Shown here piece after piece: positions 12,501 to 56,034 of a stretch of DNA of 64,000 nucleotides. Under the pieces are notes generated by a model, which was not told where the DNA came from, ran no database searches, and was given only the letters and a program-made list of their open reading frames with translations. The stretch is from Euglena gracilis (Eukaryota), in NCBI GenBank assembly GCA_039621445.1, contig CP154954.1:15580140-15644139 (forward strand), read 5' to 3'. Both the position numbers and the translations under genes were made by a program. Numbering within the stretch: position 1 is the stretch's first letter; every line of letters begins with the position of its first letter.

Positions 12501-15500
12501 TACAAAAAATTAAAAGTATTGCGCCAAAGCGCAATGTGTTTTTATTTTTGCAATGGAAAAAATGGGTGTGCCATGGCACAACTGAGCAATGGAGTCCCCT
12601 CGTTTCATTACTGGGCGCTTTGTGTTCATGCACACTGGGCCCCAGGAGCGCTGTGCCCTTGGACTGTAGAATTCCAAGTCGTTGTTATCGTCCTCTTGCC
12701 TGATTTTGAGGGGCGCCGATTTCAGGTCAAAATTTTCCTTCAGCACCTTTGGCATCAAAGGAAATATTTCTTGCGAGGTGCTGTGGTGGGGCGGGTCGAC
12801 CCTCCCCCCACCTCCCAGAGTTGGGGTTGACCCCCCACCAGACTTTCCCAAACAGCCCTGGCACTTTCGACCCCCACCCCCTTGAGTTTTGGGTTGTGCA
12901 CCAGCACACCCCCACCACAGCCCTGATAGTGCCTCTTTTCAGGGAACCCAAAACCAACCCTGGGGATGGAGTTGTTATGGAGAACCCATGGCCGAAGTGG
13001 AACCTTTTCCTCACCCCCAGATTGCCAAAAAGTCGCCCGAAGTCGTGGTATGCCGTAGTCCTGCTTCCGTGGCCATCGGGCTGGCCCGTCCATTCGCGCA
13101 AAAAAAAATGGGACTCCGGGCCGTTGGCGTCGAGCCGCCGCTGCCCGCAGCCTCCCACGGGAAGTACTTCAGCGACAGCGACGTGGACCTGCGTTACATC
13201 AACCCGCTGGTGAACCCGCCCAACGTCTCCGCCTACCGCCTGTGGACCTGCCTGCAGAGCGACGACACGCTCATCGCACAGGCCTGCCAGCTACTCTACG
13301 GTAGGTACCGGCCAGGGGAAGGGTCTGGAAGGGTTTTGCAGGCCTTTGAACACACAGCAACGTCATTAAGAAGGATCTTTTTGTGGATAAATCACCATCA
13401 CCTTTTAGCAGCCTAGCAGAGTCTAAAAAAATGTCAACTCTCCTGAATGAACACCATTTTGTCACTCCAGCACCTCGTGCCAGTAATTTCCCATATTTTT
13501 TCCCTTCAAGTTGTGTCAAAATACATATATTAAATATATATTTAATATTAATACACATTATAAATAGTACATAATATGTAACAATAACTGGGAGATAATA
13601 AATACGTATGAAATACTGGATATTTTCGGCTAAAACCTTTTAAGCAGCACAAAAATCATTATTTTCTCCCCCCTCTCCACCCGAGAAGAACTCGTTTTTG
13701 TCGTTACTAGTGTTTTATGTGTCTTTTTGTGTGGATCCACGTTGTTGTTCTGCCAAGGTCTCAGGCTTGCAGACACCCTTCTCTCCTGACCTCCCCTGTC
13801 CCCAGTCCTGGACGGCCATTCCTGAAATGAAGCCAGGGGCTGTTCTTATCCAGAACCATTTGCACCACCTTCTTTCTCCCTCTCATTCCTCTCGTTGTAT
13901 ATGAGCGATGTATGGAAAGCCCTACCACGTTTTTGAGGTTGGTGTTGCCCCCCCCCCCCCCTCGAGTAAAGGTGGTTCCCCAAGTCAAGGTCTCCTAAAT
14001 TTTCTCTTTCAAGCTTCAACGCAGGGCCACCTTGGGAACCGGCGGAGGATAACCACGATCCCGGTTCCATTCCTGGAATGAAAAATTTTTTTAGTCGCGA
14101 GCGACTGGACTTCAGTAATTTCAGTTTTCAAATCACCTCTGTTTGACCCTCAACTCCTTGCCAGGCCCGAATTATTTAGCCGCGAAGGGATCCAAACTGG
14201 GCAGGATTGCCCCCCTTCCAACTCTGTTCTTTCACCGAGGTGAGATTTTCGGTCAAAAAATTGATTTTTCGAAGATATCTCGAGAAAACGCACATTATTT
14301 CCGGAAGTGTCTCACTGATGAAATGCACCCCTGGAGGCCCTCTATCGCCCCCTGTTCACCGTTTTGGCCGCCGACACGCCTGGCCCGTGTTCTGGTGCGC
14401 TTTTGCGGCCCAAAACAGCCATTTTGAGGTGTGTTTTGGCCATTTTTTTTGGAAAAAAATAGATTTTTCCAAAATTTCCCGACAATGAAGCAAAATCAAA
14501 GAAAACGCCCGGAAAGCAAAGAGGAAGCCCTTGGAATGACCTATCCAACCATGGTTTACTTTTCTTCCAACTCTTTGTGTAGCCCGAGTTACGGCCATTT
14601 TTTTCGGCCAAGTCTGGCCAATTTCATGAGCTATTTTGGGCCGTTTTTGGGTAAAAAAAAAAACCGATGTTTTCAAAATATCTCAGAAATGAAGCAAAAA
14701 GGAAATGTGCGGAGGCCTAAATTGAAGCCCTGAAAATGCCCAATCCAACGGTACCCTGATTTCCTTACCCCGCCTAACGCCAGTTATGGCAGTCTGTTTT
14801 GTCTTGGCCGTTTTGAGCTTTTTCTTAGGTCAAAAAAAGTAAAAAAGGTCGAAATAATAGGAATTTTCTTTTGCTCGAAACCATATTTTTTTTTAAGCCT
14901 CCGGGACCTGGAAAAACTATTCTTGATTCCAAAAATAGCGAAATGTTTTCTTCCGGTGCATAGCGCCGGAAAATGAGCAAAGCAACCAGCGGCTTTTTTG
15001 AGCCAACCCAAATTTTCCACCCTATTGGTTTTCTCTGAAGGGTTCGACCCCTAAAATCCAGGACGGTCCATAAGGAAGAGGAAGGACCGCCCATTAAGGA
15101 CCGCCCTCGGGCCCCAGTTCTGGACGGCTGAACTGGGGCTTGAACGGGGTCAAAAATGAAAATCCGAAAAACACATTTTTTTGACAGTTTGGGTGGATGG
15201 GCGATGGTCCAAGGATGCCAAAAATGACTTTCTCTCCCCAAAGTCGGCCCGTTTTTGCCAAAATATGGCCGTTTTTTCAGTCGTTTTTCCCATGCATTTT
15301 CCATTGAATGTGCTGGGACGGGAAGTTTCATTCTCGGTTCAGGACCAGGCTGTCTTATAGCCGGGTGCCGACCCCACCCCGGGGGGTGCCTGCCTGGGCA
15401 GGCACTCCAAGGCATTTCAAATCCGACCCCCCCCCCCAGGGGGGGTAGGGCACTCGGCCAAAAGTGCCTAGCAGGCACTCCGGCACCAAAGGCTCCGGAA

Positions 15501-18500
15501 GGCTCAAAAAGGCCTATTTTCAAGGAAAATGGCCTTTTTTCTAAGGAAATTTCCTGGGCACAGGCCGGAATCCGACCCCCTGGGGGGGGGGTAGTGCCCG
15601 GGCAGTGCACTCAAGGGCACTCCGGACCACCTCCCCCCGGAGTTCGTAAAAAAACAGCCCCCCGCCCCTCGAGCTCCATAAGAACACCCCTGGCTGGGAC
15701 AAGAGGTTCTGTTGACTGGTCAGCGATATTGGGTGGCCACTGGCTACAGCTCTGGTGACGGGGCTGGCGATGGTTGACCTGGGTGTCGTCGAACACAGAG
15801 GAGGGAACTGAATTGGTTGGGATCCTGCCTTGGGGAAGCTGTTGTGTCAGCCTGAGAAGCGGGCGTCCCGTCAGTAACAGCCGTTTGGGAATACCCGTCA
15901 GACAGGTGGTATTTTATTAGGTGGAATCCTATTGGGTTTTATCGTATTAGGCGTCATTGAATGAGGGAGCATTGTATTGACAATGGTGCGGGGGTGTGGG
16001 GTGTGGAGGCAGTGGTTCGTCTCCAGCCCAGCAGTACCCTGCAGTGCACGGTGCTGATGCTGAAGAACCGGGCGTCGGTAATGGGAATCATTGATGCCAC
16101 TAACGCTCGAGTGGACCAATCCGTGTCGGACAAGAAGGGCGTCACAGCCGGGGAACTGAACGATTGTCTCCGGAATTGCATTTAGTTCAGGTTTGACCTC
16201 TTCCCCAAAAGGCGCCGGAAGTGCTTTTCCTTTACCCCGTGAACACTCCACGGCAGAACAACGCTTCAATATTTTTCAGGTGTGAGATCCTGACCTGCTG
16301 AACGAGTCAAAGGAACAGCCGAACTTCACTTGAATGTCATCCTCATCCATGCGAAGTACCATCAATGTCCAATGACACTGTCTTTCTTCGAACAAAGCGG
16401 GTGTTCCTGGACGGGAGGGGGGGACCAGACTAAGAGGGACTCAGAGGGACTAGAAAATCTTGGAAAAGCACTCCAAAAATACCGTTGTGTGGTTTTGGCA
16501 TCACACTGGTCATGTTTTTTTTTTGCCAGCTGGCATTTACGTAGTTACGCTGCCCAGCGGCCATGGCAAACGCCTGACGGCAACTGCTTAGTTTGTTTGG
16601 GTGGTTTTCTTTTCTGTTCTTTTTTTTTATCTTTGTGTCGAAAGCGGAACCCCCATGGACGGTGGCCACCCCGCCGTACACCCCCGGCCCACCATGGCTC
16701 GGCGGATGCGTGGGCTCCCCCCCCCCCCCGCAGCCCCCCGCCCCAGGTCGCCATCCTGGGGGGCGGTCAGCGCTGTGGCGGTCCTCCTGCCCCTTGGCGT
16801 GGGGCTGTGGCTGGGGACGCGGCTCCACGCGCTGGCGCGGGGGCCCAGGGGTCCGCCCACGCCTACGAGGGTGTGGCCCACCAGGCTTCTTTTCAACTCA
16901 GTAGACCCTCCCGGGGGGGGGGAGTCCAGGGCTGGACATCCCCGGATGCCAGGGGGGGGTCCCAGGCCAGAGTCCCAGGTATGGGTTACAGCACAAAGCA
17001 CATTTTTTTTTGGATATGCGCTCAGACGGCCTGATTTTGGGGGTCCCCTCCCCCCTCCCTTGCTGGGGTCGTTAAAAGAAGCGTGCCCACCCCGGGAGGC
17101 TGTCGCCGTGGGGAGGGAGGGGTGTCTGACCGGCTGACTTGTCCTGTGGGAAGGTTCACGACAGGGCCCCCTGTTATCACTCAGGTTTGAGCTTACGGGT
17201 TTGTCAGGCGGCAATTTTCAGCAAGGGGAGGGGAGAGTGTCGTCTGCAAACCTGTGAGCTCCAGGGAAATATCTTCCACCCGCTGTTCCCACCGACCACG
17301 ATGGTATTTGAGAATATTGATAGCATTTGCCATTGAAACGGCATTTTTTTTCCAGCTTCTGTGCAACAAAAAAGGCATTATCTCTTGGCCATTAATCACA
17401 TATTTCCAAGGAATGGGACTTGGGAATTATTATTCTGATCTGTGGCCTATTTGGCCTGTGACCTAGTAAAAAAGTATGCTTTCACATCTGTCACAGGCAA
17501 CCTCTGTCTTGGGCAACGTTTCCAGTTGTTTTTTTTTAAATTTATGTCATGGCCCCCTAGTTTAGGGGTGGGGTGTCTCAGGTTGAGGTGGCGCCCCCCC
17601 CCCAAATCAGAGTTCCTGACCCTTGACATCGGGAAATCCATTCACACCCAATCTCTGCCACCCTTGGGCCTGAGGACTGGCCAAGGGCTGGACCCGGGCT
17701 TGAATTGGGTCAAAATGAAAAAAAATAATGAAAAGAAGACACATTTTTGAATTTTTGGCTGGATTGTTGATGGCCCAAGGATGCCAGAATTTTTTTTTAC
17801 CCCCCCCGAAATTGGCCTGGTTTTGCCAAAATACGGCCGGTTTTCCCGGCCATTTTTCCCTTGTGGATTTTGCGTTGGATGCACAGGGACCGGTTTTTTT
17901 TTTTTGCTGAAGGACCGCCCCGCATAAAGCTGGTGCTGACTGGGCCCTGTTTTTTTTGCCACCCGCCATTGAGTATTTGCCCCCAAGTCCATCCCATCTG
18001 TGGCCCCGGCGTTAGTGGCCCCGGCACGCCAGGAACGCCCCCCACCCCCCCACCCCCATGCTGCCTCTCCCGCTGCGGCCGGGGCCCTGCCCTCTGATGG
18101 ACCGCATCGCCCAGCTGCAGTTCACAGCCACCGTCGCGAAACCCACCGTGTTCCGTCCACAGATTCACTCAACACCTGTGACCCCCACCCTTGGGGGGGG
18201 GGAGGGGTGTGGGGGTGATATTGGCCTGGCCGAGCCTGGCCTAGGGCCAGGCTGGAACTTTTTCCAGCGTTTTCGGCCGATGCTGCGTTTTGTGTGTATG
18301 TGGGTGGGTGTTGGGGAAGGGGGGGGGTGGGTTTTCGAAAAAAAAAGTGGGTGGGTGGGTTTTGGGTTCGGGAAGGAATGCCGCCACCCCTGTGGTTACT
18401 GAGTGATTCCCTGATTCCGGGAGCTACACCGCTTCCAGGCCTCCTTCACCCAGATGGAGCGCGGCCTGCGGGCGTTTGGGAACAGGGACTTTTCACACCA

Positions 18501-21500
18501 AGGTGCCCCAGCCCTCCTTGGCCAGGGTGCGGCAGCCCCCCCCCCCCGGGAAACTGTCACCCATGGGAACCTGTCACCAAAACCCCGCACTCGCTGACCT
18601 GTCACAAAAGGGACCTGTCACCTAGCTCTGTACTTGTTCACTTGTCAGGTGACAGTTTCCCGGGGGTGGTAGCCCGCGCAATTTCAGACCGGGCAGCCGA
18701 GCTTGGCGGCCGTCCACCCCCCCCCCCCAGCGCCGGCCAAGCAAGCTGAAACTCCACGGTGCAAAGCACCAAAAAACCTTGGGGGAAACGGCCCGAATCG
18801 GTCGAAAATGGCGTTGTTGAGGGATTTGCAGCATAGGTTCATTTATCATCTGGCTGACCCCACCCACCCCGGGGAGGGGATTTTCGAGAGTGGGTGGGTG
18901 GATTCGAACCACCCCCTCCCGAGTCTTGGGTCAGATTTTGGCCCAGACGAAGGCCGGAAAACGTTTTTCGGCGTTTTCCGCCGAATTTGCTTGTGTGGGA
19001 GGTTAGGTAGATGGGTGGTTGATCCCGGGGGGGGGGGAGTTCGTGGGTGGGTGGGTTTTCCAAAAAAAATGGGCGGGTGCGTGGGTTTGGGTCCGGGGAG
19101 AAGTGCCCCCCCCATTTTAAAAAGGTTCGGGACAAAACTGTGGCAAATACCATATGGAACAGATGTGGGCAATTTCTTGGTTCCAGCCCAGGTCCACCCA
19201 GCTGTCGGCTCCCCCCCAATCCACCCAAGGCTGTGGGGAATCTCCAAACCCCATGGGTGGTTGGGTGGGGGGGGGGGGCGGCCCCCCCCCCCCCCCCCGC
19301 AGGCCTTCCCCTATTTCTGGGGTGCCGTTTTTTAGGCCGCAGCATTTTTTTCTCGGCACCTTCTCTCTCCGAAGGAATTTTGAATTTTTCTTTTCGCAGT
19401 GCTGTGGTGTGTCAGGTAGGGGTCGCCCCCCCCCCCCCCACCACCAGCCCCCTCAGACCTGTCCGAAAAATCCCTGCATGGGAAGTTCGTGCCGCAGGCG
19501 GTGGTGAAAGTGCTGGGCAGCCTCCCGGCTGAACTGTGGGTTGGTTGAGTAGTTCTTTTTGTCTGGGTATTTCTACGCCTGGCGACGTGATTCAGATAGA
19601 ACTCCCTTTCAAAGCAACCAGCAAATAGATCCGTTTGTCTTTGCATTTTTTTCTCCGCAGGAAAGAAGGGCTTCGTGTCCCCATCCCCCTCTCCAACGTT
19701 GTCGCATGCTGCCATGCCCCTTGCTTGATTGTCTGTGATTTAAATGGAGGGAAGGAATCAGAAGCATCTGCATTACGATCTGGTGAGGTCAGTGTTGGCT
19801 GGAAGCGTGGTGGGGCAGACATTATGTATGTAATGTGGTTCACAAGGTATTTTGAGCCACAACAGTTTTTTTGGGTGTCCACAGTTGAACCACGAAATCT
19901 GAAAAGAAAATAAATACTTGTCCACAGGTGTACAGCACAAAAGGTGAGGGGGATTTTTATGTTTGTTTAACAATGCAGTGATCGCGTGGTTTCGGCATGC
20001 AGTAATGTTTTGCAATTTCATTTCCTTGCTTTTCCTCCATGGTTTGGCGTTTTTTTGGTTCTTTTGAGACGTTTGCATCCACCCGGGGACTGGTTTTGAT
20101 TGCTGGCAAAATGCAGGCAAACGATCAAATGTACCCCAACCAGGCCAGCATTTGTCTGGAAAGGAACAGGACGATTGGTGGTGAGAATCTTTGCTGCTTG
20201 TTGCTTGGTTCTTTTTCCCAAATGAAAGCGATGTTCAGCACCACAAACCATTGATGCCCTATGGAATGTTAACTGCGGAACGACAGCAATGGAAGCTACC
20301 ATTTCACAATTTTACAACGAACACTCGTACAAAATGACCGTTGCAGTTTATCTTGATCGTTTTTTTTCACCCACCGTTTTGTTTTATGTTATTTCTTCCT
20401 TTCTCAGTTTTCATTTGGTGTATCGGGTCAGCGGGAAATGGCCAATACAGTGGGATAGCACCAAAGCGGTGCCTGCTGCTGAGAAACTGACCATTATGTT
20501 CGCAGACATCGAGGGCTTCTCCACCATCTGTGAGAAGGAGACCCCCGCCACGCTGGTCTCCGTGTGCACAGAGTACTTCGAGGCCATGTGCAGCGCCTTG
20601 GGCCCCTTCTTGGCAGTGAGCCTCACTTCTTGGCGCCCAAGTCCCATTCCCAGTGGAGGGAGAGGCATGTGCGAACAAACACGTCTTGTTTTTTTTGCAT
20701 TTTTTGTGTTTTTTTGTTATTATTTTGGAAATCTGTGTGTTTCGCATTTTTTGTGTCCCCCACCTTTTTTCCCTGGCAACAAATGTTCCGAATTCTTAAT
20801 CACCTACCCGCCCCCCCCCCCTGTCGTACGACCACCCCTCATTATGACCACCCCCTGGTCACAGGTTGCAGGTCATGGGGGTGTTATGACCACCCCCTCC
20901 GGTCACAGGTTGCAGGTTGCGAAAATTTTAACACCACCTTACCTACGACCGCCCCCGCATTTACGACCACCCCCGGTCACAGGTTGCAGGTTATGGGGGT
21001 GTTATGACCCCCCTCGGTCACAGGTTGCAGGAACCCGGTCGGTCGTACGACAAGGGGGGGGGGGGCGGGTACATATCAAGACCAATTTCTTTAAATGCAC
21101 ATTTTTCTACATAATTTGGATTTTTTTTTGCTGTTTTTGATCATCCTTTTAAATTTTTTGAGAGGAAAATTGGCACAGTTGTCCAAAGCAGAACATATAA
21201 CCTCTCCAGCAGACATTGTGCGTCCCAGGCAGTTTCTTTAGAAGCACTTTTCATGTAATTGTCGTTTTGTGTGTGAGTGTTTATGTGTTTTTGTGTGTTT
21301 TTCTTTCCCCCATTTCTTTGTCCTTCGAGGGTCCTTGTTCCGTCCTCCTGTTATTCCCACTCCCACCGCCAGTATGGGGGGGGGGCAGTCGACCCCCCCC
21401 CCCACCACCCACAGGGTTTCGGGTATTTCTGTAGTTCCTTGGGAAGGGTTAGCGGGCACAGAGGGTGGAGGACATTTTCCCGGGGAGAACAGTTTCCCAG

Positions 21501-24500
21501 GGGGGATCGTTGGCAGCTCCTCCCGGAAAGCCGTGTGAAAATGCCTTCCCTGTCAACCTTTAAAAGAACCGTGACACCATGGTATGGAACCACAAAGAGC
21601 CCACCCTCCAGGGCTTTCTGTGTTTCCGGAGGCACCGATTCTTAGGTCAAAAAGTTCCTTCGGCGCCGAAGGATTTTTCTTTGCACGGGTGCGTAATTGG
21701 TGTGCATTATTATCTTAAAGACTAAATTTTTCAATTTTTTTTAGGGTTATTTAAGGCTTTTTTAAGCGTTTAAAATTTTTAAAGGCATCTTGGAGTTTTA
21801 AGAATTTTTCAGGTGTCTATTTTCCAAGGGCAGTCAAAGAGCAGAGCAAAGAGTCTGGGCATCGAACCAACGTTTGTTCAAGCTGAAAATCACAAAAGTT
21901 TTAAAAAGCACTCTTTTTAGGTTTTGGGTGGATGCACTATGTTCCACCAATGCGAGAGAACATTTTTTTCAAAGAGTTGGCTTGTGTTTGCCAAGATTTA
22001 GCAACTTTTTTTTTGCTCAAAACTTGACAAATTTTCCAAAATTATCTGTTTAAGGTTCTTCAAGGGGTTTAAAGGTTTTTTAAGACATTTTGGCCAAAAA
22101 AGTATTTTTTTATTTTTTTTTTAATTTTTCAAGCGCCTCAAAGAATTATACCTGGGGGTTCGACCCCCCCCCCCAGGTGAGGGGGTGGACCAGTTCCTAC
22201 CGTTCCTACAGTGCAGCCCTGCTCCTACCCTTGTACCCGCTGAACTGTCATATATTAATTTTGAAAGTTCTTTGTTGAAAACAGCAATTTCCCAAAATAA
22301 TTGCTTTCATTTTTATCCGGCTTCTGATCACAAATTTGTGAACCCCCGCAGTTTTGCTTTTTTTGTGTCGACCGGAGGGTCAAAAATTGTCAATGCCTTC
22401 CCTCTAAGGTAGGCCCCCGGGAAACTGTTCTCTGTTCCAATACTTGCAGACCTGTCCGTATCATACCATTGCTTCATACCTGTCCCACCCCACCCCGGGG
22501 GGTGACTGACTGGTTTTTTCAGAGTGACTAGCTGGTTTTTTGGCCAAGAGACCCCCCCCCCCCCCATGGGGTGGGGTTGGCCTGAACATGAAAAGTAGCT
22601 GGCCTGGCGCCGAAGGCGCCGGAAGTTTTTTGAGACTTTTTGGCAATATTGCCTTGCCAACGTGAGCGACATGAGCGCATTCAAGAGTGGTCGATTCCCC
22701 CGGGGGGGGGAGGGGTAAAGCGAGTGACTGGTTTTTTGGGAAAAAGTTACTGACTAGTTTTTTCAGGGTTGAAAGCCTTATACCCACCCCACACCCAACA
22801 TTGGAGGAAAATTTAGCCCCTCCCCCCTCCCCCCCTCGCATTCACGGAGAGCGTGAGGCTTCCCTCCTCCCAAATCATTTTGCGTCCCACTCCTGATCCT
22901 CACCCAATCCCAGAAAAGTCAAAAAGGGGGAAAGGGCAAGCGGGTGAGGTTCTGGTCGCCTTTCTTCTAAGTGACTTCCTCAGCACACCCCGCACATAAG
23001 CTCAGATGTTTCCTTTGCCATGTGTCCCAAGAATGTCTCTTTAGTTGCCAACAAAAGGAAAGACACGATAGACAAAAATCTGGGGGCATCCCTTCTCCCC
23101 CCGTTTTTTCTGGTACAGCCGTGCGGGGGGGTCAGCACAACGTGCAGCACAAAATTATCGGCGACATCAACACCGTAGTTCGCACCAGATGCTGCTTGGG
23201 GGGGCATTTCGCCGCTGCGAACATTTTTCTCCCCCCCACGTGCACCCACTGGAAAATCTTTGGGACCTTGCCCAAAAAAACGCAGATATTTTGCAGGCCA
23301 ACTCCCAGCACCTTGCGATCAGATATGGCGTATTACCTGGGCCCGCCTTTTGGGTACAAAACCAGCATGTTTGGCCCCTCCGCAGCCCCAACCCTGTCAA
23401 TTTTTTCCCTGTGGTCTAGGACAAACCCAACTTCCCAAGGGGGATATTCTTGCGAGGCTCCCCCCCCCTCAAGTTCCCCAGGCTGGAAAAGCCTTAGAAA
23501 TATTAAAAAAATACCACAGTGCAGATACGATGGAGTGCGGGGTCATCCAATGCAGTGGGGGGCTGGCAGTACCTTCTGTGATTGTGACGCCTGGAAGCAG
23601 GGCAGGGTAGGGTGGATAGATTTGTGTGAAGATTGGGCAGGTCCCAATGGGTCAGTTGGGGCAAAATTGGGGCAAAGGTTTTCCCTCATTTCAGAATCAA
23701 CTGCCATTCCCCCCCCTCCCCCCCGCCAGAGCGCATTCAAGTTCTGGCAGCCCCACACAGTTGCCCACGCAGATATTTTGGCAGGGGCCAACTCCCTGTG
23801 AGGCCAACCTTGCGAGTCCGGACCTGGGGGGGTGTCAGGATATGGTAATTGGACGGCGGTGCCCTGCCTTGCTGTGGGGTCAGAGCAAACCAGCATGATG
23901 GGGATTTGGCAGGGTCCCCGGTACCGGCCAACCTGTCAGGTGACAGTTTCCCTGTGGGGGGGGGGGGGGCTAGGAACAAACCCAGAGGACAGCTTCCCAG
24001 GGTGGATAGCTAGTTCTAAGAGCTGGCTATTCCCCAAATCTCAATGTATTATTCAACGAAAACCCAGCCGAAAGGCTGGAAAGATAAGCAACTCTAAAAT
24101 ATTAAAAAAAAACAGTGCTACCAGATACGATGGAGTGCGGGGTCATCCAATGCAGTGGGGGCTGGCAGTCATTGCGCTTACCTTCTGTGATTCTGACTGC
24201 TGGAAAAGCCGGCCGGAAGCATGGCATCCGGGTTCAGGGTTAGCGGTCGGGATAGATTTGTGTGAAGATTGGGCAGGTCCCAATGGGTCAGTTGGGGCAA
24301 AATTGGGGCGGTTTTCCACTCAACCCCCATATTTCATCCTACCCCCCCCCCCCCCAACCCTGACCCGCCCAAAATTCAAACTCCATGTTTCTGGAAGGGG
24401 AAGCAGTGCCCTCCCCCACACAGTTGCCCCACCGCGGGGCTGCGCCATGGCGATGACTGGAACACCCCCACCTCAGAGTGGGCCACGGACCCCCCCCCCC

Positions 24501-27500
24501 CCCCCAGTGACCCACAACCCATCCACCCGTTCAAACCGCAGTGTTTGGTGAAAATCGTCATACCAGTTCCCAGTGAAAATATGTCTCCAGTGCTTTTCAC
24601 CCTTGATTCTTTTAGGGCATGTGTTCTTTTCAAAAACTAAACGCCAACATTTGATTGACCTCCACCCAGTGCCTCTGAGATGAATAAACCTTTTTGCTGC
24701 ATGCAGTGAGTTACAAGGCCTAACATGATGGCAACATGCTGACAGGCAACAGGCAGCAGGAATGCACCGCTCAAGGTGCAGGGCAATGTGTGGGCGGCCA
24801 CTCAACCCCCATATTTCATCCTACCCAAGGACCCTCTCCCTCTCTAGGGACCCTGCCCGCCCAAAATTGACTGAAAACCCTTGAAAACAGATCAGTTCGA
24901 CCTGGCCAGACTGACTCATGGAACACCCCACCTCAGAGTGGGTGGATGGATTGTGGGCCACTGGACCCCCCCCCCCCCCAGTGACCCACAACCCATCCAC
25001 CCGTTCAAACCGCAGTGTTTGGTGAAAATCGTCATACCAGTTCCCAGTGAAAATATGTCTCCAGTGCTTTTCACCTTGTTTTCAATGTCTTTTCAAAAAC
25101 TAAACGCCAACATTTGATGACCTCCACCCAGTGCCTCTGAGATGAATAAACCTTTTTGCTGCATGCAGTGAAGTTACAAGGCACATGTAATCCACCGAAT
25201 GGTAACCAAGACATCAATGAAATAGAGTCTGTGCCAAAAAAAAAAGCATTTGGGCTTTCGGCTGACCCTGCTGCTAGCGTCATGGACCTGCATACGTCGT
25301 GGCGGGCGGGCGGCCTGCCACTGCTGAAGTTCCGTGCAGGGATCCACACTGGCGAATGTCTCGTCGGCAACTTCGGCCAGGGCTGAGCGATCGCTGTTTA
25401 TTTTTCTGTTGGACTCCCAGCTACCAGCAGCCACCATCGCGTTTCTGAGGATGTGCAGATGGATGGATAGATAAATAGACAGATGCATCCATACATTACA
25501 TACCTTCAGAGATAGATAGATGGATTGATGGATGGATGGATGTGTATCCACATACACACATGCACACATACACATTTATGTATGTATACACATGCATGCA
25601 TGCAGACGTGAATACATACAACACACAGCCATACAAGCATTCATGCAGCATGCATCCATCCATCCGTCCATCCATCCATCGATCCATCCATCCATCCATC
25701 GATCCATCCATCGATCCATCCATCTATCCACCCGTCCATCCACCCATCCACCCATCTAACCATCCATCCACCCACCGACACACCCATCCACCCACATCCA
25801 TCCATCCATTCCTCCATCCATCCATCCGTCCATGTACGCACACATGCATGCACACATACATACATACATACATAGGTAAACACATACATACATACATACA
25901 TACATACATACATACATACATACATACATACATACATACATACATACATACATACATACATACATACATACATACATACATACATACATACATACATACA
26001 TACATACATACATACATACATACATACATGCATGCATGCATGCATGCATGCATGCGTGCATGCATGATGGATGCATGCGTGCGTGTATGCGTGCGTGCGT
26101 GCGTGCCTGCCTGCCTGCCTGCGTGCGTGCATGCATGCATATATACATATAAACATGCATACAGACATACGTACGCATAGGTATGTTTCTATGCTTACAA
26201 GGAATACCGGGAATGATCTTATTCCGGAGGTTGTTAATCCGGACGCTCAAATTCCGTTGGCCCAAAGGCCGTACCGGAATTTGTGATTCTGAACTTCGCG
26301 TTTTTTAAATTAGGTCTCGCATGTAACAAAAAAATGCCAGAAGGATGGGAAAAAAGCAGTCTACAAGGTTGAGCGTGACATGGATTACATGTAACTAGTC
26401 TACAGTTTCACAGAACGCTCATCCCAGTTGATTCCTTCGTTGGGTCAATTTTTTTTTGTGTTTCGGGCTGAGTGACCTGAGTCTGTTTCCTTCCCAGAAC
26501 GATAGCCAGGGTGAGTGAGAGCAGTTCACAGTTGGTCCAGTTCACTGAAAGTCGATTTTGCAAAATTTGAGCACCTGAAACTTTGAAAAGTGGCAGTGAA
26601 GTCAATTGAAGGTGTGCATTTTTTTCAGCTGAGAAGCAAGTTCCAGATGCTTAAAGGTTCCTTGGCAAGCAACAATTCCACCTTAATTGGTTTGCGCGGC
26701 CTTGATTTTTCTGTTGTCCATGTTCTTGTGCGTTTTTTTTATATAGTTTTTTTGTAGCTTTTCCTGATGGAATTTTCAAAAAAAATGAAAATTTCAACTT
26801 ACTAAGTCAACTCCCACAGGTTGAAATGGACTTTTTGGGGTTCCTCGACCTCAAAAATCCCCACTCCCCCTTTTGAAAGGCTTAAACCACCAAAAAATAA
26901 CAGCATTTTTTTGCCATACGTTTTCGCAAATTTTCGGGCATTTAGGCCTCATTGCGCCAAAACTGGGTTTTCAACCCTGCTAAACCAGCAGCCGAAACCA
27001 ATGTTTTTGGATTCCTGCCGCTGAACTCGCAGGGGAACCAAAAAAAATGTTCAAAAAAGGATGCCACGTTTTGCGGTCGTTTAACGAAATGAACGCCGGT
27101 GCACTCTGGGCGGTGTAACATATCGGCGTCCGGTTTAAATGTCGACCGAAATTAATGTCGTCCGGAATAAGAGCCGCCGGAGTTAGATCGTCCCCGGTAT
27201 ACAAAATTTTGGGTATTATGTCATCATCATTGCATCGGCGATGTCAGAAAAATTTAGTATTCTGATAGCGTTGATCACAGAACATGAATTATAATACAGT
27301 GCCATCATATTGTATTCAGAATACAAGATACATCGCTCAAAAAATGCATATTTGCTTATGTTTTTCTCGTTTTTTGTTTTGTTTTTGAAAACACTGCTTT
27401 CCACCAGGCAATCCATTACCTGTAGCCACGCACCTATGCCGACCGCAGCTGACCGCAGCCGACCACAGCCGACCGCAGCCAACCGCGGCCGACCGTGGGT

Positions 27501-30500
27501 TTCAGGACTGTCATAGGTGGGTTGCCGACCGCAGCCGACCGCAGCCGACCGCAGCCAACCGCGCAACTTTTTTCTAATTGATGCCAATTTTTCAGTGAGA
27601 ATGAGGAATTAGGCTCATTTTTATCCCAGATTTTGAGGTTTTTCTGGCTCATCTGGCTCATGTTGTCACTTTTGGCCACTTTTGACCATTTTAGGTCGCT
27701 TTTGTCACATTTTGGCCCATTAGTCACCATAATTCCCCCATTTTGACCTATTTTGACCTTTTTGGACCACTTTTTGCCCACTTTTTGTAATTTTGGGCCA
27801 TTTTGTCGCCCTGGGGCCATTTTGGGCCATCTTTGACCATTCAAGCCATTTTCGACCTTTTTTGTTATTTTTGCCCATTTTTTGGTCTCTTTTTCGTCCA
27901 ATTTGACATTTTTGAGCATTTTGAGCCAGTTTGTTGCCAAAAGTGAACAAAAGCTGCCAAAGTGACCAAAATTGGCCAAAAGCAGAGCCATTTTTGCGCC
28001 AGTTTTGACTTTTTTGGACCACTTTGGGCTTTTTTTTGTTTTTGTCTGTTTTTGGTAACTTTTTGGTCCATTTTAATCATTTTTGACCATTTTTCGCCAG
28101 GTGCAGCTTCTGGAGTCGCAAAAACAGTGGCCAAAGCAGCCTTTCTTTGGCCTCTTTTGCCCACTTTTGGCATTTTAACCATTTTTGGCCACTTTTAGGC
28201 CATATTTTAGGTCACGTTTGGCTGCTCTTGATGTGAAAAGCAACAAACGACGTTTAAAGTGGCCTGAAAGTGGCCAGAAGTGGATAAAAGTGGTCAAAAG
28301 CAGAGAAAAGTGGGCAAAAGAGGCCAAAAGTGGTCAAAAGAGGTCAAAGAAAAGCAAAAGGTGGCCAAAAGCAGCCAAAACACAGCAAAAAGTGGGCAAA
28401 AACAACAAAAGTGACTAAAAGAAAGTGTTATATGCTCATTTTTTGTTGGCCTGCCCCCCCACCTACGGCCGACTATTTTGCCGACCGCTGCCGACCGCAG
28501 CCAACCGCAGCCGACCGCGACCGACCATGACCGACCGCAGTCGACCGCGGGCTAAAATTTGGAATCTGTCATAGGTGCTTGCCTGTAGCCCCCACCTACA
28601 AACCCCTGGATTCAAAAGACATCTGGTCAGCGGAAAGCCGTATTTTATAAGTCAAGGGTTTGTCAAATCCCCAAAGCAATCCCAACCCCCCCCAGATTTT
28701 GTCAGAATTGCGTTTTTTTGATCATGTTCACTCATGTAAAAATTGCCAGAACAATCAGGTTTTAGTGGGTTTCGGCAAAAATGGCGTCCCCAGGTTTTTC
28801 ATTTTCTTCATGGTTCACGTCTTTTGGTTGGGGGGTTATGAGTGTGAGGGTTCCATTATCCTGTGCATCCATTCATGCAGTTTCACATGCGCAACATTCC
28901 GGGTATGTGGAATATTCTGAACTTCAAACCCCCCCCCAGGGTTCGATATAAGGAGGGCGTACATGGTTTAGGTGGGGGGGGGCCGTCCGCCCCCCCCCCC
29001 CCCCCCCCGCCCCCCCCCCGGCCCCCGGGGGGGGGTCCCGGCCCCCCCCCCCCCCCCCACCTGCAAGGGGGGTCCGGACCGACCCTCGGGGGCAAAAATT
29101 GACCCCCCCCAAAAAGGGTCAATTTTTTCCTCCGGCGCTTCGCGCCGAAAATTTTTTGCATTTTTGGCACATTTTTGCCCAAAAAGTGCCCAAAATGGCA
29201 CTTTTGGTCGTTTTGGGGGTCAAAAATTTTCGGACCGGCGCTTCGCGCCGGGCCGAAATTCGGCCACCCTGACCGCGCACCTGTTTAGGTGGGGGGGGGT
29301 GTCCCCCCCCCACACCCCCCCCCCCCCCCCCGGCCCGCAGGGGGGGGGGTCCGGACCACCCCCCCCCCCCACCTGTCCTTATATCGAACCCTGCCCCCCC
29401 CTCTACCGGCCATCTGCCGGCAGAATCCTCTCTCGGGCCCTGGGGCCGGCTGCAGCTACCGCGTCAGCTACACCTGCCTGGGCGACGGGGTGGGCCAGCC
29501 CCCTCCTTGCACATCCTTGGCATATTTTTGGGACGTTTTTGAATGGGTGACTGCGCTGTTAGTTTCAGCGAAGGATGCATTTTTGATTTTATATATTTTT
29601 GTAGTCAAAGACCTTTTTCTGGATATTCTTTCCCAAAAATTGGAACTGGATCTTGGCCAGACTTTCAGTTAGTGCGCCGCACAAAATTTTTTCTGTGCGC
29701 CGCAAGCGCCGCAGGAAAATTTGATTATGCGCCGCAAGCACCGCAGCAAAAAATCCACCGTGCGCCGCCTGTGCCGCAGCAAAAAAATTCCGTGTGCCGC
29801 AAGCGCCGCAGCATTATTTTCACCATGTGTTGTAAGCACTACATTTTAATTTCACCTTTCTTCCCCTAATAAAAATAAGAGTGAGGCCGGTGCTACCATG
29901 GTGAAGCACAGCTTTGCCAAAAGCCCGGGTGTGAGCGCCTTTGTGGTTCAAAGTGCACCACAGTAAAATTTCAGCAAAAAAATTATGTGCGCCGCAAGCA
30001 CCGCAGCAAAAAAAATTTTGCGCCGCAAGCACCGCAGCAAAATTTTGTCCATGCGCCGCATGCGCCGCAGAAAAAAATTTTTGCGCCGCACAGAACTTCC
30101 TGAGTCGCACTAACTGAAAGTCTGATCTTGGCTCGGTGGCTTGCTCACAGACTTGTCAAAGGGATTGTTCCCCACCCCCAAGGCCGGTTGTACGTCGTCC
30201 AACTAGCAGGTTTTTTTCAACCCTGTACCCATGCCCACCGATGAATTTCAATGCCTAGTCACCAAAGGGTGACTGGACGAAAGCAGCCTTGCTGAAGCTG
30301 CGTTTTTTTCCTTTATAATTTTCCATTTTCCCATAAAAATGTAGTATATTTTGGTTTAAAATTTAGGGGGTCCACCTGCCTCATCCGGAAAAGGCGAATG
30401 GCAGCAAGGAAGTTGGCACACACAAATATTTTATTTTCAAACTGAATTTTACCAATTGGCCCAGTTTCGACCCATTTTGTCCTGAGTCGAAAATTTTGAC

Positions 30501-33500
30501 TTATCCTCTGCCCCAATAGAGGAAACAGAAATACTGCACATTTTTCAAACCAAAAGAAATATTTTGAGAAGTAACGAATTCCCAAAAAAAAGAAGTGCGA
30601 GAAATTTCCACTCCTGGTCAATTTCCCCCCAATTTGATCAATTTTGGGGAGCCCGAAGTGAGGCATGATGTGCCCCCCTTGTCCAACGACTGGGATTGTC
30701 TAACAACCTCCCCCAGTCAGGTGCGATCGTTTTGTGTGTGATGTCGGTTTGATCAGTGTAGAACAAATTGTTGATATAATTTGTTTCACAGAAGCTTGTT
30801 TTGTAAATTTTTGGGGTGACAACCACTGAAAACACAAAAAGGGCTCGAAAAAGGGCTGTATGCCCCCCCCCCAAATGGACATGGGTAAAATGACTAAAAT
30901 TGATATAAGTGTGCAAGGTTGCGACAAACGACCGAGATTTTGCTTAAAGTTGGCCAAAAATATGGCCAAATACGATGCCAAAATTGGGCAAAAACCGCCC
31001 AAAATGGCCATGTACCCCGTCTCTGGTCAATTCTCTTTGCTGATTTAGCTCCCCCCCCTGTCTAACGGCCACCCCCCTGGTGGGAGATGAACATTGGCTG
31101 TTTTTGCCACCACCCAAGAAAAATCTTCACCTTTCAGGTGGCAAATTGCCCAATAAAACGGCATCAAAATATTTGTGATGAAATTTGTTATCGCCTCATT
31201 CGCAGGAAGTTTCTGTTCTGGACATGGTCAAACATAGTGCCATAGTTGCCATGTGAATTTTAAAGATATTTCCTTCTGGCACATTCACCCATGTTGGTGT
31301 TGCCCAAGAAGGGCGCTGGCCGGCAACCTTTCCTCCCGTCTGGAAGGGCTGAACAAGAAGTTCGGGCTCAGGCTGCCCCATACCCCCAACTCAAATAAAG
31401 CTGGGTTGAGCAATTTCAAGCAGCCAGCAGGTCTAAAAACCAAGGGCTTGTATGCACCCCCCCTCCCCCCGGTCGGAGGACACCTTTTCAGAGACTTTTC
31501 CAGATTTTGTTGGCCTGGCGCACAGCACTGGGCCGAAAATTTTTGAACCCAAAATTGGCCAAAAATTGACCAGAATGCCATATTTTGACATTTTTTGGGC
31601 AGAAATTGGTCAAAATCGCCCAAAAAATTTCGGCGCAAAGCTCCGAAAGGAAAATTTGGCCATTTTGGGGGGCGTGGAGTACCATGCACCCCCCCCCCCC
31701 CCGGTTGGAGGACACCCCTTCGGTCCCAGCCCCATGTCCAACGACCACCCACCGGTCGTTGAACAAAGGGTAGTTTCTTTATCGGAAGCCAAGCTTGATA
31801 TTTTGATTTACAAGTTGAGGTGTTCGGGATAGTATCCGATGATGCGGGGTGAAATGCACTGGTGGTTTCTGGCCTTCTGTTTCTCTCCCCACTCCGCTGT
31901 GCATCGCTCATCTATTTCCCTTGTCTAAGGTTATGGTATTTTTGTATTTTCAGGGTGAAGAAGTTAACCTTTTTCCAGGCATGGGGGAAATACGTGGCTC
32001 ATTTCTCTGAGTTCTGCAATTCCACACGGGGCAAGAAAAAGCCCATTGAAGGTAAAACAGAAAAAAAAACAGGAAAAGTTTTCAAGGACAAAGTGCATTT
32101 TCCGTGCAGTCAGTTTTGATGCGGTTGAAGATGATAATTTAGCTTGAGTTTTTTTTCTTTGCTCTTTGTAGGTTGACTTGGTGTTTTGGGAAGTTGGGAA
32201 CACACATTCTACAGCTTGTCCGAAAATTTGGCATCGACAACCAAGTGCAATCCATATGTGTTTTTATCATCCAAAAATTGTTTGAAAACACGAGGGCAAA
32301 ACACCCAGGAAAGGTTGTCGTTTTCCAGCCTGTGACGTTGTCATCTCGCCCGAGCGTTTTTGCCTGATCCAGCCCTCGCATTCTCGAGGGTTTTACCTCG
32401 GTTTGTGCCCACTTGTCAGGAACCACCTTCTGTGGGGGGGTGCGCATTGCCAATGCTCAAATCTCAGGGTTTTCCTTTTTTATTATTATCCCAGAATATC
32501 CGCTTCAGGGCGTCGCTCAAGCTGAAGTGAACCTCATCCTCCCCAAGCCGATTTTTTTCCGGTCCCGGACCCCCTCCCCTCCCCATCAACGAGGGTTTTA
32601 AATTATTTTCCAGCCACCCTTTGGGCGGCTGGACGGTAATGGATTTTTTGTTTTTTCTGGTGCAGAAATGGGCCAAAAATGGGCCAAAATCGGGCAGGGC
32701 AGCATTTTGGATGAAAAAAATTCATCACCATTTTTTTTTGCATAATTGGCAGCTTTTTGGGGCGTTTTTGGAGTTTCGATTTTGGCACCCGGTTCGACAC
32801 CCAGACTGGCCCAATTCGAGCCCTGGGACTCCTATGGGGGGGTCCTCTGAGCTCCCCCTCCCTGGGGTCACTCACGAGGTCAGGTGCAGCGTCCGGAAAT
32901 GGAGGTCAGGAGGCGGGGTCTTTGTCTGGAACTGGGTTGTCACTTGGACACCCTGTTCTTCATGTCAGTGCTGGGGGGGGGGGTCGGGGATGGTGGAGGT
33001 GGCGGGGGGGCGACACTCTCCCAAGTGAATGTGGAGGGGCAGCCTGCCGGTGACCTACATTTGTGTCTCCCAGTCCACGTTTGAGGCGTGTCCAGAGGAT
33101 TTCCATTTCAGGCAGCTGGCAAAGGTGACGGTGCCTGGCAAGGCTGCCCAGGCGCCGAGACTCCGACAGAGTTCTCCCCACCCAATTTACCTCGGTACAA
33201 ACAGCTATCAGGCCCGCTGAGCCATCGTCCCCACAAGGCCTTAACCTTCCAGTGGCAGTCATATAAGGTCAGGCTAACTCCAGTTTCTGATGATTTTGAA
33301 GGGCTCGAATTTGTATGCCTTTTTCAAGCGGCCAAGCCATTTTTCTTGTACCTTCGAATCATCTTCATTCTTTCTGACGCAGAGGGCTTTGGCATTCCAT
33401 TTGCTGCTTCTCAATTTGGCATTGTTGACGTGCTATACAGTTGGAAGCCAACCCTTTCTCGGGGACTTCATGCAAGGTTTTGTTGTGCAGAGGCCTCTCA

Positions 33501-42440: not shown

Positions 42441-44661
42441 CAGGCATTATTTTTTTTTAAGGCGAGATTTCTCAAAAAATTTTAAGGCGTTTTTTAAGGT
42501 TTTTTAAGGTTTTTTAAGGTTTTTTGAGGAATTTTAAAAATTTTTAAGGTTTTTTAAGGCATTTTTTTTCATTGCAACTGTTTTAAATTTCTGACCCTAT
42601 TCAGGACATTTGCTTGCCTGTTGGACTTAAATGGCCTAAAATGGCCTCAAATGGGGAAATTTTGGGGCTTGACCATAGGTGACCAAGGTTGACTGCTTGT
42701 TTTTTTGAAACAAAAAAAATGTTTTTTTAAAACAGCATGTTTTTTTTAAAAAAAACTTTTTTTTAAAAAAACAATTTTTAAAATACAGTAGGGGAACTAA
42801 ATAGTGGGACACCTGAAAATTTTGTGGGTCATACCCAACCCCCAGCCCCAAAGCCTCTGCCAGCCCATGGGATGTGGTGATGGTGTGTGCACACTGGCAT
42901 GGCCCTGCCCCACGCAGCAGTGCCCCAGCCAGCTCTGCTGCAGCACGCTGTGCCAAAATCAGGCCAATCCTATGTGAGCAGGTTTTTTCCATTTCCTGAC
43001 CCCTTTTGGACTGCAAAGAAAACCCAGCCTCAGGTAAGGGGACGAGGCGGTTCACACTGCAGTGAGTGACATTGGACCCCTACTTTGAACAATGCAGGTT
43101 AACAACCCCTGTCAACGTGGGCTGGTGGGGCGATGGCCTCGACATGCGGACCAATTTGGGCAAAAATCACCGTTTTTGGCCATTTTTTGCCCAAATTGGT
43201 CCGCATGTCGAGGCCATCGCCCCACCAGCCCACGTTGACAGGGGTTGTTAACCTGCATTGTTCAAAGTAGGGGTCCAATGTCACTCACTGCAGTGTGAAC
43301 CGCCTCGTCCCCTTACCTGAGGCTGGGTTTTCTTTGCAGTCCAAAAGGGGTCAGGAAATGGAAAAAACCTGCTCACATAGGATTGGCCTGATTTTGGCAC
43401 AGCGTGCTGCAGCAGAGCTGGCTGGGGCACTGCTGCGTGGGGCAGGGCCATGCCAGTGTGCACACACCATCACCACATCCCATGGGCTGGCAGAGGCTTT
43501 GGGGCTGGGGGTTGGGTATGACCCACAAAATTTTCAGGTGTCCCACTATTTAGTTCCCCTACTGTATGTGTTTTTTTAAAAAAAACACATCAAAAAAGTC
43601 TGGAAAAACTTAAAAACGTCACTTTTTGATGACAAAAAAATACTTTAGAACTTTTTCCTCAAAAAATGGCCATTAAACTCCCTCAAGCCCCCATTTTTCA
43701 CACCTTCCAAAAAATCAATATTTTCTCAAAATTTTGAATTTGAGAGGTTTTTGAAGCAAAAGAAATGCCATTGAAAATCCAACAAATTTGACAGAGGAAA
43801 AGTGTCAGTAACATTTGACTGTGCCAAAACTTGGTCCACCTTTTTTGACCTTCGTTATTTTCCACCCCCCCCCCAAAACTACCAAATTTAACCCTGAAAT
43901 CTTTGAGTTTTTCTTTTGTCAAAATCAACATTTCTCAAAATTTCAATTTTGAGAGATTTTGGAAGCAAAAAAAAATCCCACTGAAAATCCAAAAAAATTT
44001 CCAAGGGAAAAAATGTCAGTAAAATTTGACTGTTCCAAAATTTGGTCCCATTTTTTTGACCTGCATTTTTTGACCCCCTCCTAGAAACTAACAATTTTCA
44101 TCCCTAAAATTTTGGTGATTTTTTTTGCTTGAAATGCTGTGGCAAGTGTGGGAAACTGCTCCAGCGTAGTAAATTGTCCCAAATCGGGATTTTTTTGTTG
44201 TTCATGCAACTTTTGCTGCAATTGCACTTTTGAGCAATTTGGGTTGACTCCTCCAAGAATGTCTCAAGTAATTCAAATCAAGAAAGATGTGGTTGCAAGT
44301 TTTGCTTATTCTGGCCGTGTGTCACAGCTTTTGGTGAACCGAGGCCAACCGAACTATGCCAGAAACCTTGGCAAACAATCCGGTTTTCACATTGTTTGTT
44401 CACAACCGCTTCTGCATTGACTGGCTTTATGCGGGGTTTCAGACATGCCATTATTTTGTTTGGTGCAAGAAAAAAAATCCCAGGGAGAATTTTTAAGGTT
44501 TTTTAAGGTCATCACGCGGAGGAAAAACTTCCCCGGGGTGATTTTTTTAAGGTCTTTTAAGGTTTTTTAAGGTTTTTTAAGGCATTTTGGCAAAAAAAAT
44601 TTTAAGGTTTTTTAAGGTTTTTTAAGGTTTTTTAAGGCGCCTTAAAAAATAATAATGCCTG
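42441..44661. mobile_element. CAG...CTG TIR element with aaggtttttt subterminal repeats; hosts the foldback element
   Basis: caggcattatt...ttaaggcg/cgccttaa...aataatgcctg; no clear TSD. Confidence 0.6.
42786..43564. mobile_element. Foldback/Tc1-mariner-like nonautonomous element: 381-bp inverted arms, 17-nt spacer, TA TSD
   Basis: Arms 42786-43166 and 43184-43564 mirror each other (ORF track shows mirrored ORFs); termini TA|CAGT...ACTG|TA. Confidence 0.9.
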
Positions 44662-51971: not shown

Positions 51972-52418
51972 CATACATCTCTCTAAGGTTTTGCGAACCC
52001 CCCCCGGGGGGGCGGCTGCAGCCAGTCCTGATTTGGGCCCAGCCCAGCCGCAGCAGCCCCCCCCCCCCCCTCCGGGGGGGTGCTGCTAGCCCAGCTAGCC
52101 AGCCCCTTTTTTGGGGGTCCAGCCCAAAATTTTTCGGCGCAAAGCGCCGATATTTTTTGAAAAACTGTGTTCAAAAGTGGCCAAAAATGGGGTTTGGGGG
52201 CGTTTGGGGCATTTTGGGGGGGGTTCAGATGCATAATTTTTTTCAAAACTGTGTTCTGCAGGTCATTTTTGGGCATTTTTCCGATTTCAGTCCAGCTCGC
52301 CCCGGTTCGGGTCCAGCCGGGGCCCAGCCCCCCCCCCCCCGGGGGGGGGCGGGCTAGCCAGCCCAAATTTCTAGCCCTAGCCCAGCACCTCCCCCCGGGG
52401 TCCTTAAAGAGATGTATG
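51972..52418. mobile_element. MITE with TIR catacatctctctaagg/ccttaaagagatgtatg in poly-G (related copy ~36317-37040)
   Basis: 17-bp TIR with one mismatch; body similar to 56035-56471. Confidence 0.75.
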
Positions 52419-54347: not shown

Positions 54348-54851
54348 CAAGTGTTAAGTTTAGTCCCCTCCCCCCTAGGGGGGTACTAAACTTGACACCG
54401 GGTTGGGCACGGGGCATACACCTGGGTTAGTGGAGGGCGCATGGTTAGGGTTAGGACCGGCCTGAGGTCGTCCGCCGCACGCACGCGACGCCGCGCAACC
54501 TGCCCTGCGCACGTGGGCCCAACTGCCTTGACTGCCCACACCGCAAATCGCGGCACCGGCCCCTTTTGGAGTCACTCACTCCCAAGGCAAAGGGAGGGCG
54601 AAGTCCCTTATGGGGGCCGACTCTTCGGCGGGCTTTATCTTTCTTTCCTTCTGTCAGTCTGCCGCCTTTCGGGATCGCGCAGCTGGGCCACTGGGCCAGC
54701 AGGGAGGATGCGCTGCGTCGCGCGCGCGACGACCTCAGGCCCGCCGGTCCCAACCTTAACCCTAACCACTGACCCCAAGGTGTGTACCCTGTGCCGAACC
54801 CGGTGTCAAGTTTAGTACCCCCTAGGGGAGGGGAACTGAACTTAACACTTG
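54348..54851. mobile_element. Imperfect ~500-bp GC-rich foldback element in AT-rich DNA
   Basis: caagtgttaagtt...tactaaacttgacaccgggtt mirrored by aacccggtgtcaagtttagta...aacttaacacttg; pairing extends inward roughly 170 bp. Confidence 0.8.
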
Positions 54852-56034
54852 TCATATGTATGTATATACATATTATTAACATTATAGTAATTATAATTAT
54901 CTGTACTATGATTATTCAATGCAATTAATTATATTTAAAATTATATATTGAATTAGCTTTATTAAGATAATAAATTTATATAGCTAAGTATATAACCAAT
55001 TATATAGTTATGAGTAATTATAATGTAAATTAATATATATAAGACATAATATATGAGATATATTCATATAGACATATACATATAGACAGATTCATATAGA
55101 CATAAGACATATACATATATATAAGATATATACTATACATTATTATGTATATGATAAAATATTGCGCATATGTATAAATTTGTGCCCCCCCCAAGGGCAA
55201 AGGGTTGATAGGGATATTGAAGGAGTGGGCTCCATATGAACGATTTAGGGGGGGTTATAAATTTCAATACAACGTATTATAGAGTACCCGCGCCGCCCCC
55301 GGCAATTGACGCCCCTGGGCAACTGACGCCCCCGGGCAATTGTCACCCCTGGCTGTGCCCGCCAAATTGTCACCCCGGGAAATTGCCACCCCCTTCCGTC
55401 CTGCCCAATTTGTCACCCCTCGTTTGCAGTATTGCACTGTGAACTTTCTTTTCACCGACAACTCGATTGATCTTTTGTTTCCCCACAACGTGCTTTTTGT
55501 AATTTTCTTGAAGCCATCCCACCATCCCACATGACTGCCTGGCCTGGTTTACGCCGGCGGTGGCTCACTGCGGGGCAGCGCCGGCCGCGGCGCCCGGCGC
55601 ACGCCGCCTTCTCTCCGGTGGGTCGGCGTTGCTGATTCGCCCGCAACGGCGGCCGCGGCGCCGGGGCTCGACCGCCGCGCCGGCCCGCGACCGCTCCGGC
55701 GCTACCGGCGGAGTTGGCCTTCGGGCTTGAGGCATGGAAACTGGACGGCGTTGAAGTCGGTTTGGACAGCCCGGTTCCGAATCGGCAAAGATGAACCGGA
55801 GGCGGTCCGACTTGAAAAGTCACCGGGAAATGGGGAGATTTAATTCTCACTTGGAAGCATCCAATTTTTTCCCTGCTGTGGAGGCATAAATCACCCCCCC
55901 CCCAAATGGAAGCGTGGGGCCGATTTTCTTTTGTGCCAGTGTTGTTTGTTCATTAATTATTTTTTTATTCATTAAACTTCCAATTTCCAGTTCCAAAATA
56001 GGTCAATAACAAAATCTTGATCTGCAGCCCAAGG

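Follow-up and report, generated by a model that had tools for sequence, protein, structure and literature searches.

A recent miniature transposon with an 8-bp target-site duplication in Euglena gracilis matches the splicing code of nonconventional introns and is a plausible source of them

A MITE inside a cyclase gene

The 64 kb of a Euglena gracilis contig analysed here (the window) is repeat-rich eukaryotic DNA that holds one cyclase gene on its plus strand; its roughly 24 exons, placed by tblastn and refined, begin at about 469 and close with a stop at 37768. Inside this gene, at 29650-30132, lies a short element, which we call E2, that has perfect terminal inverted repeats (TIRs) and stands between two identical 8-bp target-site duplications (TSDs). 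We identify E2 as a non-autonomous DNA transposon, a MITE (miniature inverted-repeat transposable element), that inserted recently into intron 19 by a staggered 8-bp cut. A preliminary description of this DNA had listed four elements, here E1 to E4, that start with CAG and end with CTG, two of them (E2 and E4) with clear 8-bp TSDs; we read both points directly from the letters and re-derived them by script. The coordinates are collected in Table 1.

E4 is an unrelated element with the same architecture as E2. The size (under about 800 bp) and inverted ends of MITEs are found in E1, E2 and E4, and flanking duplications in the form of exact 8-mers at E2 and E4; the length of the duplication at E1 is unreadable because its flanks are a C homopolymer. 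In the left subterminal array of E2, Tandem Repeats Finder (TRF) reported two rows, 29674-29751 and 29695-29813, with a period of 32 and 2.4-3.7 copies. The terminal stem of E2 is present in the predicted minimum-free-energy fold of the RNA (-163.8 kcal/mol, z = -4.05). No Pfam match was found in the open reading frames (ORFs) that overlap E2 (29543-29866 and 29823-30155) or E4 (56006-56485 and 56166-56678).

Three candidate observations on these elements were set aside. A metagenome scan with the 19-nt end of E2, as a route to a further copy, returned one contig that was otherwise unlike E2 and resembled bacterial coding sequence. The ORF at 29289-29672 enters E2, as if E2 interrupted an exon; homologous proteins put the next exons at 31325-31366 and 33053-33157, which makes E2 intronic. 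For E4, the frame that is open downstream of the element has, by eye, a stop three codons before the insertion site, and a position in a coding exon was rejected. The interior of E3 contains a 384-nt inverted repeat (42783-43567, 100% complementary, with a 17-nt loop), possibly a foldback structure, possibly a product of misassembly.

A census of inverted repeats that was blind to end sequence and required a perfect seed of at least 10 returned 3238 pairs in the window. Four of these have exact 8-bp flanks, where by our own arithmetic about 0.05 are expected by chance: E2, E4 and two C8-flanked pairs, namely E1 and a G/C-run pair at 54-1127. Pairs ending in CAG make up 10 of the 487 that are not of low complexity (2%), and all three elements with exact 8-bp flanks (E1, E2 and E4) start with CAG; the informative flanks of this kind are found at CAG...CTG elements only. 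When the census was relaxed to 250 CAG...CTG pairs whose ends agree at 10/12 or more, the flanks were identical at 8/8 positions in three pairs, at 7/8 in none and at 6/8 in four; when the right flank was shifted by 10 or 20 nt as a control, no pair rose above 6/8.

Fit to the nonconventional splicing code

The code of euglenid nonconventional introns has been defined genetically as 5'-N3CDG-/-CH'GN5-6|R (Nomura et al. 2025, PMC12501133). As that paper reports it, the donor spacer is exactly 3 nt and intolerant of other lengths, a 6-nt acceptor spacer is tolerated beside the 5-nt one, a purine is required at the start of the next exon and pairing is required behind CAG/CTG; wholly artificial 50-bp inserts that carry the code are spliced precisely (PMC12501133).

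Read with its flanks, E2 gives ggc-CAG...CTG-atctt|G with a 19-bp stem, and E4 gives agg-CAG...CTG-gccca|A with a 17-bp stem. The sixth base of the duplication is a purine in both cases, G for E2 and A for E4. Together with their TSDs, the two elements conform to the code in every listed respect, including at least 12 paired bases behind CAG/CTG.

The preliminary description had calculated that an intron made of TSD bases 6-8, the element and TSD bases 1-5 would, on removal, restore the original site, bases 1-5 then running straight into bases 6-8. This arithmetic is correct, and it coincides with the experimentally defined code (3-nt spacer, CAG...CTG, 5-nt spacer and purine exon start).

Table 1. 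Elements, introns and neighbouring gene in the window.
Feature	Position	Strand	Description
E2	29658-30124	.	467 bp; 19-bp perfect TIR from CAGAC; ends CTG
E2 left TSD copy	29650-29657	.	ATCTTGGC, identical to 30125-30132
E2 left TIR	29658-29676	.	19 bp from CAG; perfect complement of 30106-30124
E2 left subterminal array	29674-29813	.	~32-bp repeats, GCGCCGCAAGCRCCGCAGCAAAAAA-like
E2 right subterminal array	29972-30090	.	~31-bp repeats; period 31, 3.8 copies (TRF)
E2 right TIR	30106-30124	.	last bases CTG
E2 right TSD copy	30125-30132	.	ATCTTGGC
E4 with TSDs	56027-56479	.	element 56035-56471, 437 bp; 17-bp perfect TIR CAGGCTTTTGCTTAAGG from CAGGC; GCCCAAGG on both sides
E1	28937-29393	.	457 bp; 18-bp perfect TIR CAGGGTTCGATATAAGGA from CAGGG; C8 on both sides; within intron i18
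E3	42441-44661	.	2221 bp; TIR 23/24, starts CAGGCATTATT (CAGGC)
Intron i7	8512-13148	+	acc-CAG...CTG-cccgc|AGC; flanks 4/8
Intron i14	18480-19481	+	arms CAGGGACTTTTC / CAGGGATTTTTC 11/12; flanks TTTGGGAA / CATGGGAA 6/8; most MITE-like intron
Intron i18	25375-29447	+	ggc-CAG...CTG-gggcc|GGC; flanks 4/8; holds E1
Intron i19	29493-31324	+	N3-CAG...CTG-N6; holds E2; borders from homology only
Second adenylate cyclase gene	62097-64000	same strand, tandem	exons near 62097-62222, 63487-63606 and 63846 onward (tblastn)

The host gene and its introns

On translation, exon 20481-20600 shows a match to Pfam PF00211, the class III adenylate/guanylate cyclases. The nearest database proteins are Euglena transcript-derived cyclases (EG_transcript_* and GGOE01* entries), the best of which have 88-89% identity over that exon only. 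A tblastn search of the window with 30 cyclase proteins gave 346 matches, and the host gene is predicted from them to be a Euglena-type receptor adenylate cyclase. The exons on either side of the E2-bearing intron, 29448-29492 (15 aa) and 31325-31366 (14 aa), match Euglena cyclase proteins. A conserved catalytic stretch of about 40 aa (NGTIDKFIGDCIMA...) is missing between exons 20481-20594 and 25279-25377 (window 20595-25278); it is present in all five homologues compared and is encoded in no frame of the window. The gap could mean that this gene is a pseudogene or that part of the region is missing from the assembly.

For 23 introns the junctions were inferred from the scores of in-frame joins on six homologous proteins, and the code was sought afterwards. 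Thirteen of them fit N3-CAG...CTG-N5 (one with CAA...TTG), two more fit with N6 and eight are non-standard or uncertain, two of these eight with spacer sums of 10. The fraction that fits, 57-65%, is close to the 61.2% published (PMC12501133), and nucleotide-level sliding is possible in 10 of the 15 code-fitting introns, a share resembling the 69.1% given in the same source. The statement in the preliminary description that the introns carry 3+5 unpaired nucleotides is accordingly right for these 13 and for the published code, and does not extend to the two with 3+6 or to the eight others.

The first base of the intron is a purine in 15/15 code-fitting introns, and the exon that follows opens with a purine in 13/13 N5 introns. 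The published code leaves the first intron base free, yet it is a purine in every code-fitting intron of the first gene; under a duplication model it would be one and the same target position as the base that opens the following exon. A pyrimidine|purine preference at both junctions was published in 2018, and the purine counts of the window agree with it.

Several introns deserve a separate remark. The most MITE-like, i14, looks like an aged MITE, and is individually not significant. Two short introns placed by homology, 15757-16035 (279 nt) and 18157-18420 (264 nt), lie outside the 3+5 register, their unpaired spacers summing to 10. A junction repeat of 5 nt, TTCCG, is seen at intron 13. Introns 7 to 9 (10077-14764) are filled by a dense family of inverted segments that are 70-88% similar, and the large introns appear to have grown through nested repeat insertions.

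Other repeats in the window

A further CAG...CTG element, 459 bp long, occupies 24505-24963 between C-runs, which make the length of its duplication unreadable; its ends (CAGTGACCCACAACCCATCCACCC) agree at 22/24 positions. Beyond a 15-nt stretch (GAC and a C-run) its first ~100 nt recur as a partial second copy (region 24505-25002). A 447-bp element at 51972-52418 lies between G-runs and has ends (CATACATCTCT.TAAGG) that agree at 16/17 positions; its interior resembles that of E4 (TAAGG, then C/G runs), and its CAT...ATG ends do not fit the splicing code. Near 54348-54853 there is an element of about 505 bp with long imperfect inverted ends, CAAGTG...CACTTG, and no duplication. The arms of intron i6 (6165-8464) also start with CAAGTG; six common bases are no evidence of kinship. 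Long microsatellites of the types (CATC)n, (ACAT)n and (CATG)n are found at 25649-26140, and tetranucleotide or related microsatellites, or repetitive ORF translations, also at about 6.6-8.4, 48.5-49.4, 52.4-52.9 and 60.4-61.1 kb.

A possible route from transposon to intron

If an element of this kind entered a transcribed exon, the RNA would, we infer, be cut 3 nt upstream of CAG and 5 nt downstream of CTG. Excision would then take away the element together with one copy's worth of the duplication (3+5 = 8 nt) and restore the original message. Insertions would be nearly harmless, which makes elements of the E2 and E4 kind a plausible source of nonconventional introns, and the 3/5 register could be explained as the split of an 8-bp duplication. 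E2 matches the code exactly, and chance is an unlikely reason for the match; the seeding of introns by such elements is plausible and is neither confirmed nor refuted by the window. On balance we lean towards reading E2 as a recent MITE with an 8-bp duplication whose anatomy matches the splicing code and which is a plausible source of nonconventional introns.

As the preliminary description noted, a transposon origin is not a new idea: an origin of these introns from MITEs was put forward in print in 2014, at a time without known euglenid transposons, came up again in 2018 and in 2025 had not gone beyond being 'suggested'. A 2024 review labels CAG/CTG as a TIR and the junction repeats as TSD-like. 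One published young intron supports the idea: a newly gained intron in the gapC gene that occurs in one E. agilis strain only, has all nonconventional features and is bordered by 'eight nucleotide direct repeats', the longest among the introns studied there (Milanowski et al. 2016, PMC4770533). Repeats of exactly this length are what an 8-bp duplication predicts; the authors of that report read the intron as a product of double-strand-break repair (PMC4770533). More generally, junction direct repeats are reported for 84.4% of E. agilis introns (PMC12501133). Our literature searches returned no link between 3+5 = 8 and a specific duplication length and no description of free-standing donor elements, which is no proof that none exists.

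The superfamily of the elements

Transposons of the hAT superfamily make 8-bp TSDs and have short TIRs that start with CAG, with the consensus end 5'-YARNG and the target preference nTnnnnAn. The full 5'-YARNG end is found only in E1 (CAGGG), E2 starting with CAGAC and E3 and E4 with CAGGC, and neither of the clean TSDs, those of E2 and E4, shows the target preference. By their 8-bp duplications, CAG ends and subterminal repeats the elements are, tentatively, hAT-like. ORFs of at least 100 aa were scanned with Pfam in the large introns and in 37.8-62.3 kb, covering 101 of the 197 that are not of low complexity; the scan matched the cyclase domain and one sub-threshold chance hit only, and found no transposase among these 101.

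Membership in another superfamily with 8-bp TSDs, such as Merlin, is in our estimate rather unlikely, and it would change the label and not the splicing arithmetic, which is independent of superfamily; CAG ends together with 8-bp duplications are the hAT pattern. What speaks for Merlin is that E. gracilis itself is reported to have two Merlin families, which make 8-bp TSDs and carry intact DDE transposases (PMC8101967), that the scanned ORFs include no hAT transposase, and that our searches returned no paper linking Euglena with hAT, nor one combining Euglena, hAT, transposon and intron, which does not prove that none exists; neither Nomura et al. 2025 nor the 2024 review mentions 'hAT'. Merlin TIRs are described as having a conserved terminal 5'-GG-3' (PMC8101967), whereas E2 and E4 end in CAG/CTG, the bases outside their TIRs being unpaired and allowing no outward extension.

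Origin of introns or coincidence

A number of results weigh against a transposon source for the introns of this gene. E2 itself lies, by protein homology, inside an intron and not in an exon, and E1 to E4 are each present in one full copy within the 64 kb, so that mobility of their families is not visible. E3 has no TSD, its flanks agreeing at only 4/8 positions, there are other TIR elements in the window that end in CAT...ATG or CAA...TTG, and the ORF scan yielded no transposase. The intron borders come from protein homology and not from RNA, and with the best relatives at 88-89% over one exon no transcript-derived protein pins the junctions down. Two introns with a 6-nt spacer and the two with spacer sums of 10 are not explained by an 8-bp TSD.

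The flanks of the introns point the same way. The preliminary description had proposed looking for TSD-like identity at intron junctions in excess of controls. In the 15 code-fitting introns we set the 8 nt that precede CAG against the 8 nt that follow CTG, using as control the left and right flanks re-paired among introns. Within the window, identity amounted to 44/120 against 38.3 expected (sd 4.6, p=0.15), and shifted registers gave similar values. The positions equivalent to TSD bases 1-5 contributed 26 matches against 20.4 expected (p=0.10), and those equivalent to bases 6-8, which set the start of the intron against the start of the next exon, 18 against 17.9 (p=0.57). Even the 6/8 agreement at i14 is of a kind that re-paired flanks reach in 5/210 cases, so that at least one such intron would be expected in about 30% of sets of 15. 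Three junctions had been cited as partial support (ggc/ggc, gaa/gaa and acc/agc); their letters are as stated, and the class of match to which they belong stands at the chance level just given; ggc/ggc-type matches are accounted for by the purine composition at intron +1 and exon +1.

Homology between intron ends and elements, the other expectation of the preliminary description, was also sought in the window: among 42 ends of 21 introns none has terminal homology to anything else in it, and intron arms and element ends have only CAGG(G/C) in common. By the measure of junction identity and terminal homology that the preliminary description had set for itself, the window lends the intron-origin idea no positive support. 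The tested introns may be old, with only the intronic 3+5 nt free to drift.

These results bear on a second alternative, that the fit is a coincidence: the elements would be ordinary transposons, the introns would have arisen by another route, for example double-strand-break repair with filler DNA, and the junction repeats would come from microhomology or from the common pyrimidine|purine preference. Flank identity that does not exceed re-paired controls, intron ends without homology to the elements and the purines that account for the cited junction matches all agree with it, as does the preference of the gapC authors for double-strand-break repair in their intron with 8-nt repeats (PMC4770533). 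We nevertheless consider coincidence unlikely. Three independent features coincide: the ends are CAG...CTG, the duplication is 8 nt long and so equals 3+5, and its position 6 is a purine. A rough joint chance of about 1% follows from ~3/64 for ends that fit C-D-G, multiplied by ~2/9 for the length of the duplication. The youngest known intron, moreover, has repeats of exactly 8 nt (PMC4770533).

The reverse direction, in which excised introns re-entered DNA by reverse splicing or by reverse transcription of circular intron RNA and gave rise to the elements, is highly improbable, for although the 2024 review describes excised nonconventional introns as full-length circles and introns and elements have the end code in common, a reinserted intron RNA would bring its old 3+5 nt along without duplicating the new target, whereas the identical 8-mers that abut the TIRs of E2 and E4 are the mark of a staggered DNA cut and the subterminal repeat arrays of E2 fit transposase binding.

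Returning to a transposon source, the proposal of the preliminary description that the splicing register is a fossil of hAT insertion keeps its arithmetic, the code fit of E2 and E4 and the 8-nt repeats of gapC, and is left, in this window, without a significant excess of flank identity and without homology at intron ends. The broader idea that CAG...CTG elements with 8-bp duplications are a living source of introns, and that the 3/5 register is an adaptation to, or a fossil of, one transposon superfamily, we regard as possible and put forward tentatively. If it is true, any insertion into a transcribed exon with a purine at position 6 of the duplication would be erased exactly from the message, and the idea would also account for the 72% share of nonconventional introns in E. 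agilis. Free-standing elements that bear the code together with an 8-bp duplication would supply the missing donor of these introns, and the neutrality of insertion at the RNA level would give a simple reason for the spread of introns.

Comparison with known systems

Like euglenid nonconventional introns, E2 and E4 with their duplications have CAG after the first 3 nt and CTG before the last 5, are followed by a purine and pair over a long stretch behind CAG/CTG; they differ in that E2 is located inside intron 19 and not at an exon-exon junction, and in that its removal from RNA is something we infer. The introns of the window, for their part, lack the exact 8-bp flanking duplications that the elements have. 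Non-autonomous hAT elements (Ds-like MITEs) have in common with the window elements the 8-bp TSD, short CAG TIRs and subterminal arrays, the difference being that no hAT transposase is linked to the elements described here. The Merlin families of E. gracilis are likewise DNA transposons of this genus that make 8-bp TSDs, and Merlin ends begin with 5'-GG (PMC8101967), where the window elements begin with CAG.

A parallel in other eukaryotes is with introners, for example those of Micromonas, which are described as MITE-like transposons that become introns, one TSD copy giving part of the splice signal (PMC11282704). Introners, as described there, are removed by the spliceosome at GT/GC-AG sites and have 3-nt TSDs, whereas the elements of the window would use the nonconventional system with an 8-bp TSD split 3/5; families of near-identical intronic copies are also a trait of introners and not of the window elements as seen. 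What the two systems would have in common is an element with TIRs and a TSD whose removal together with one TSD's worth of sequence restores the exon (PMC11282704).

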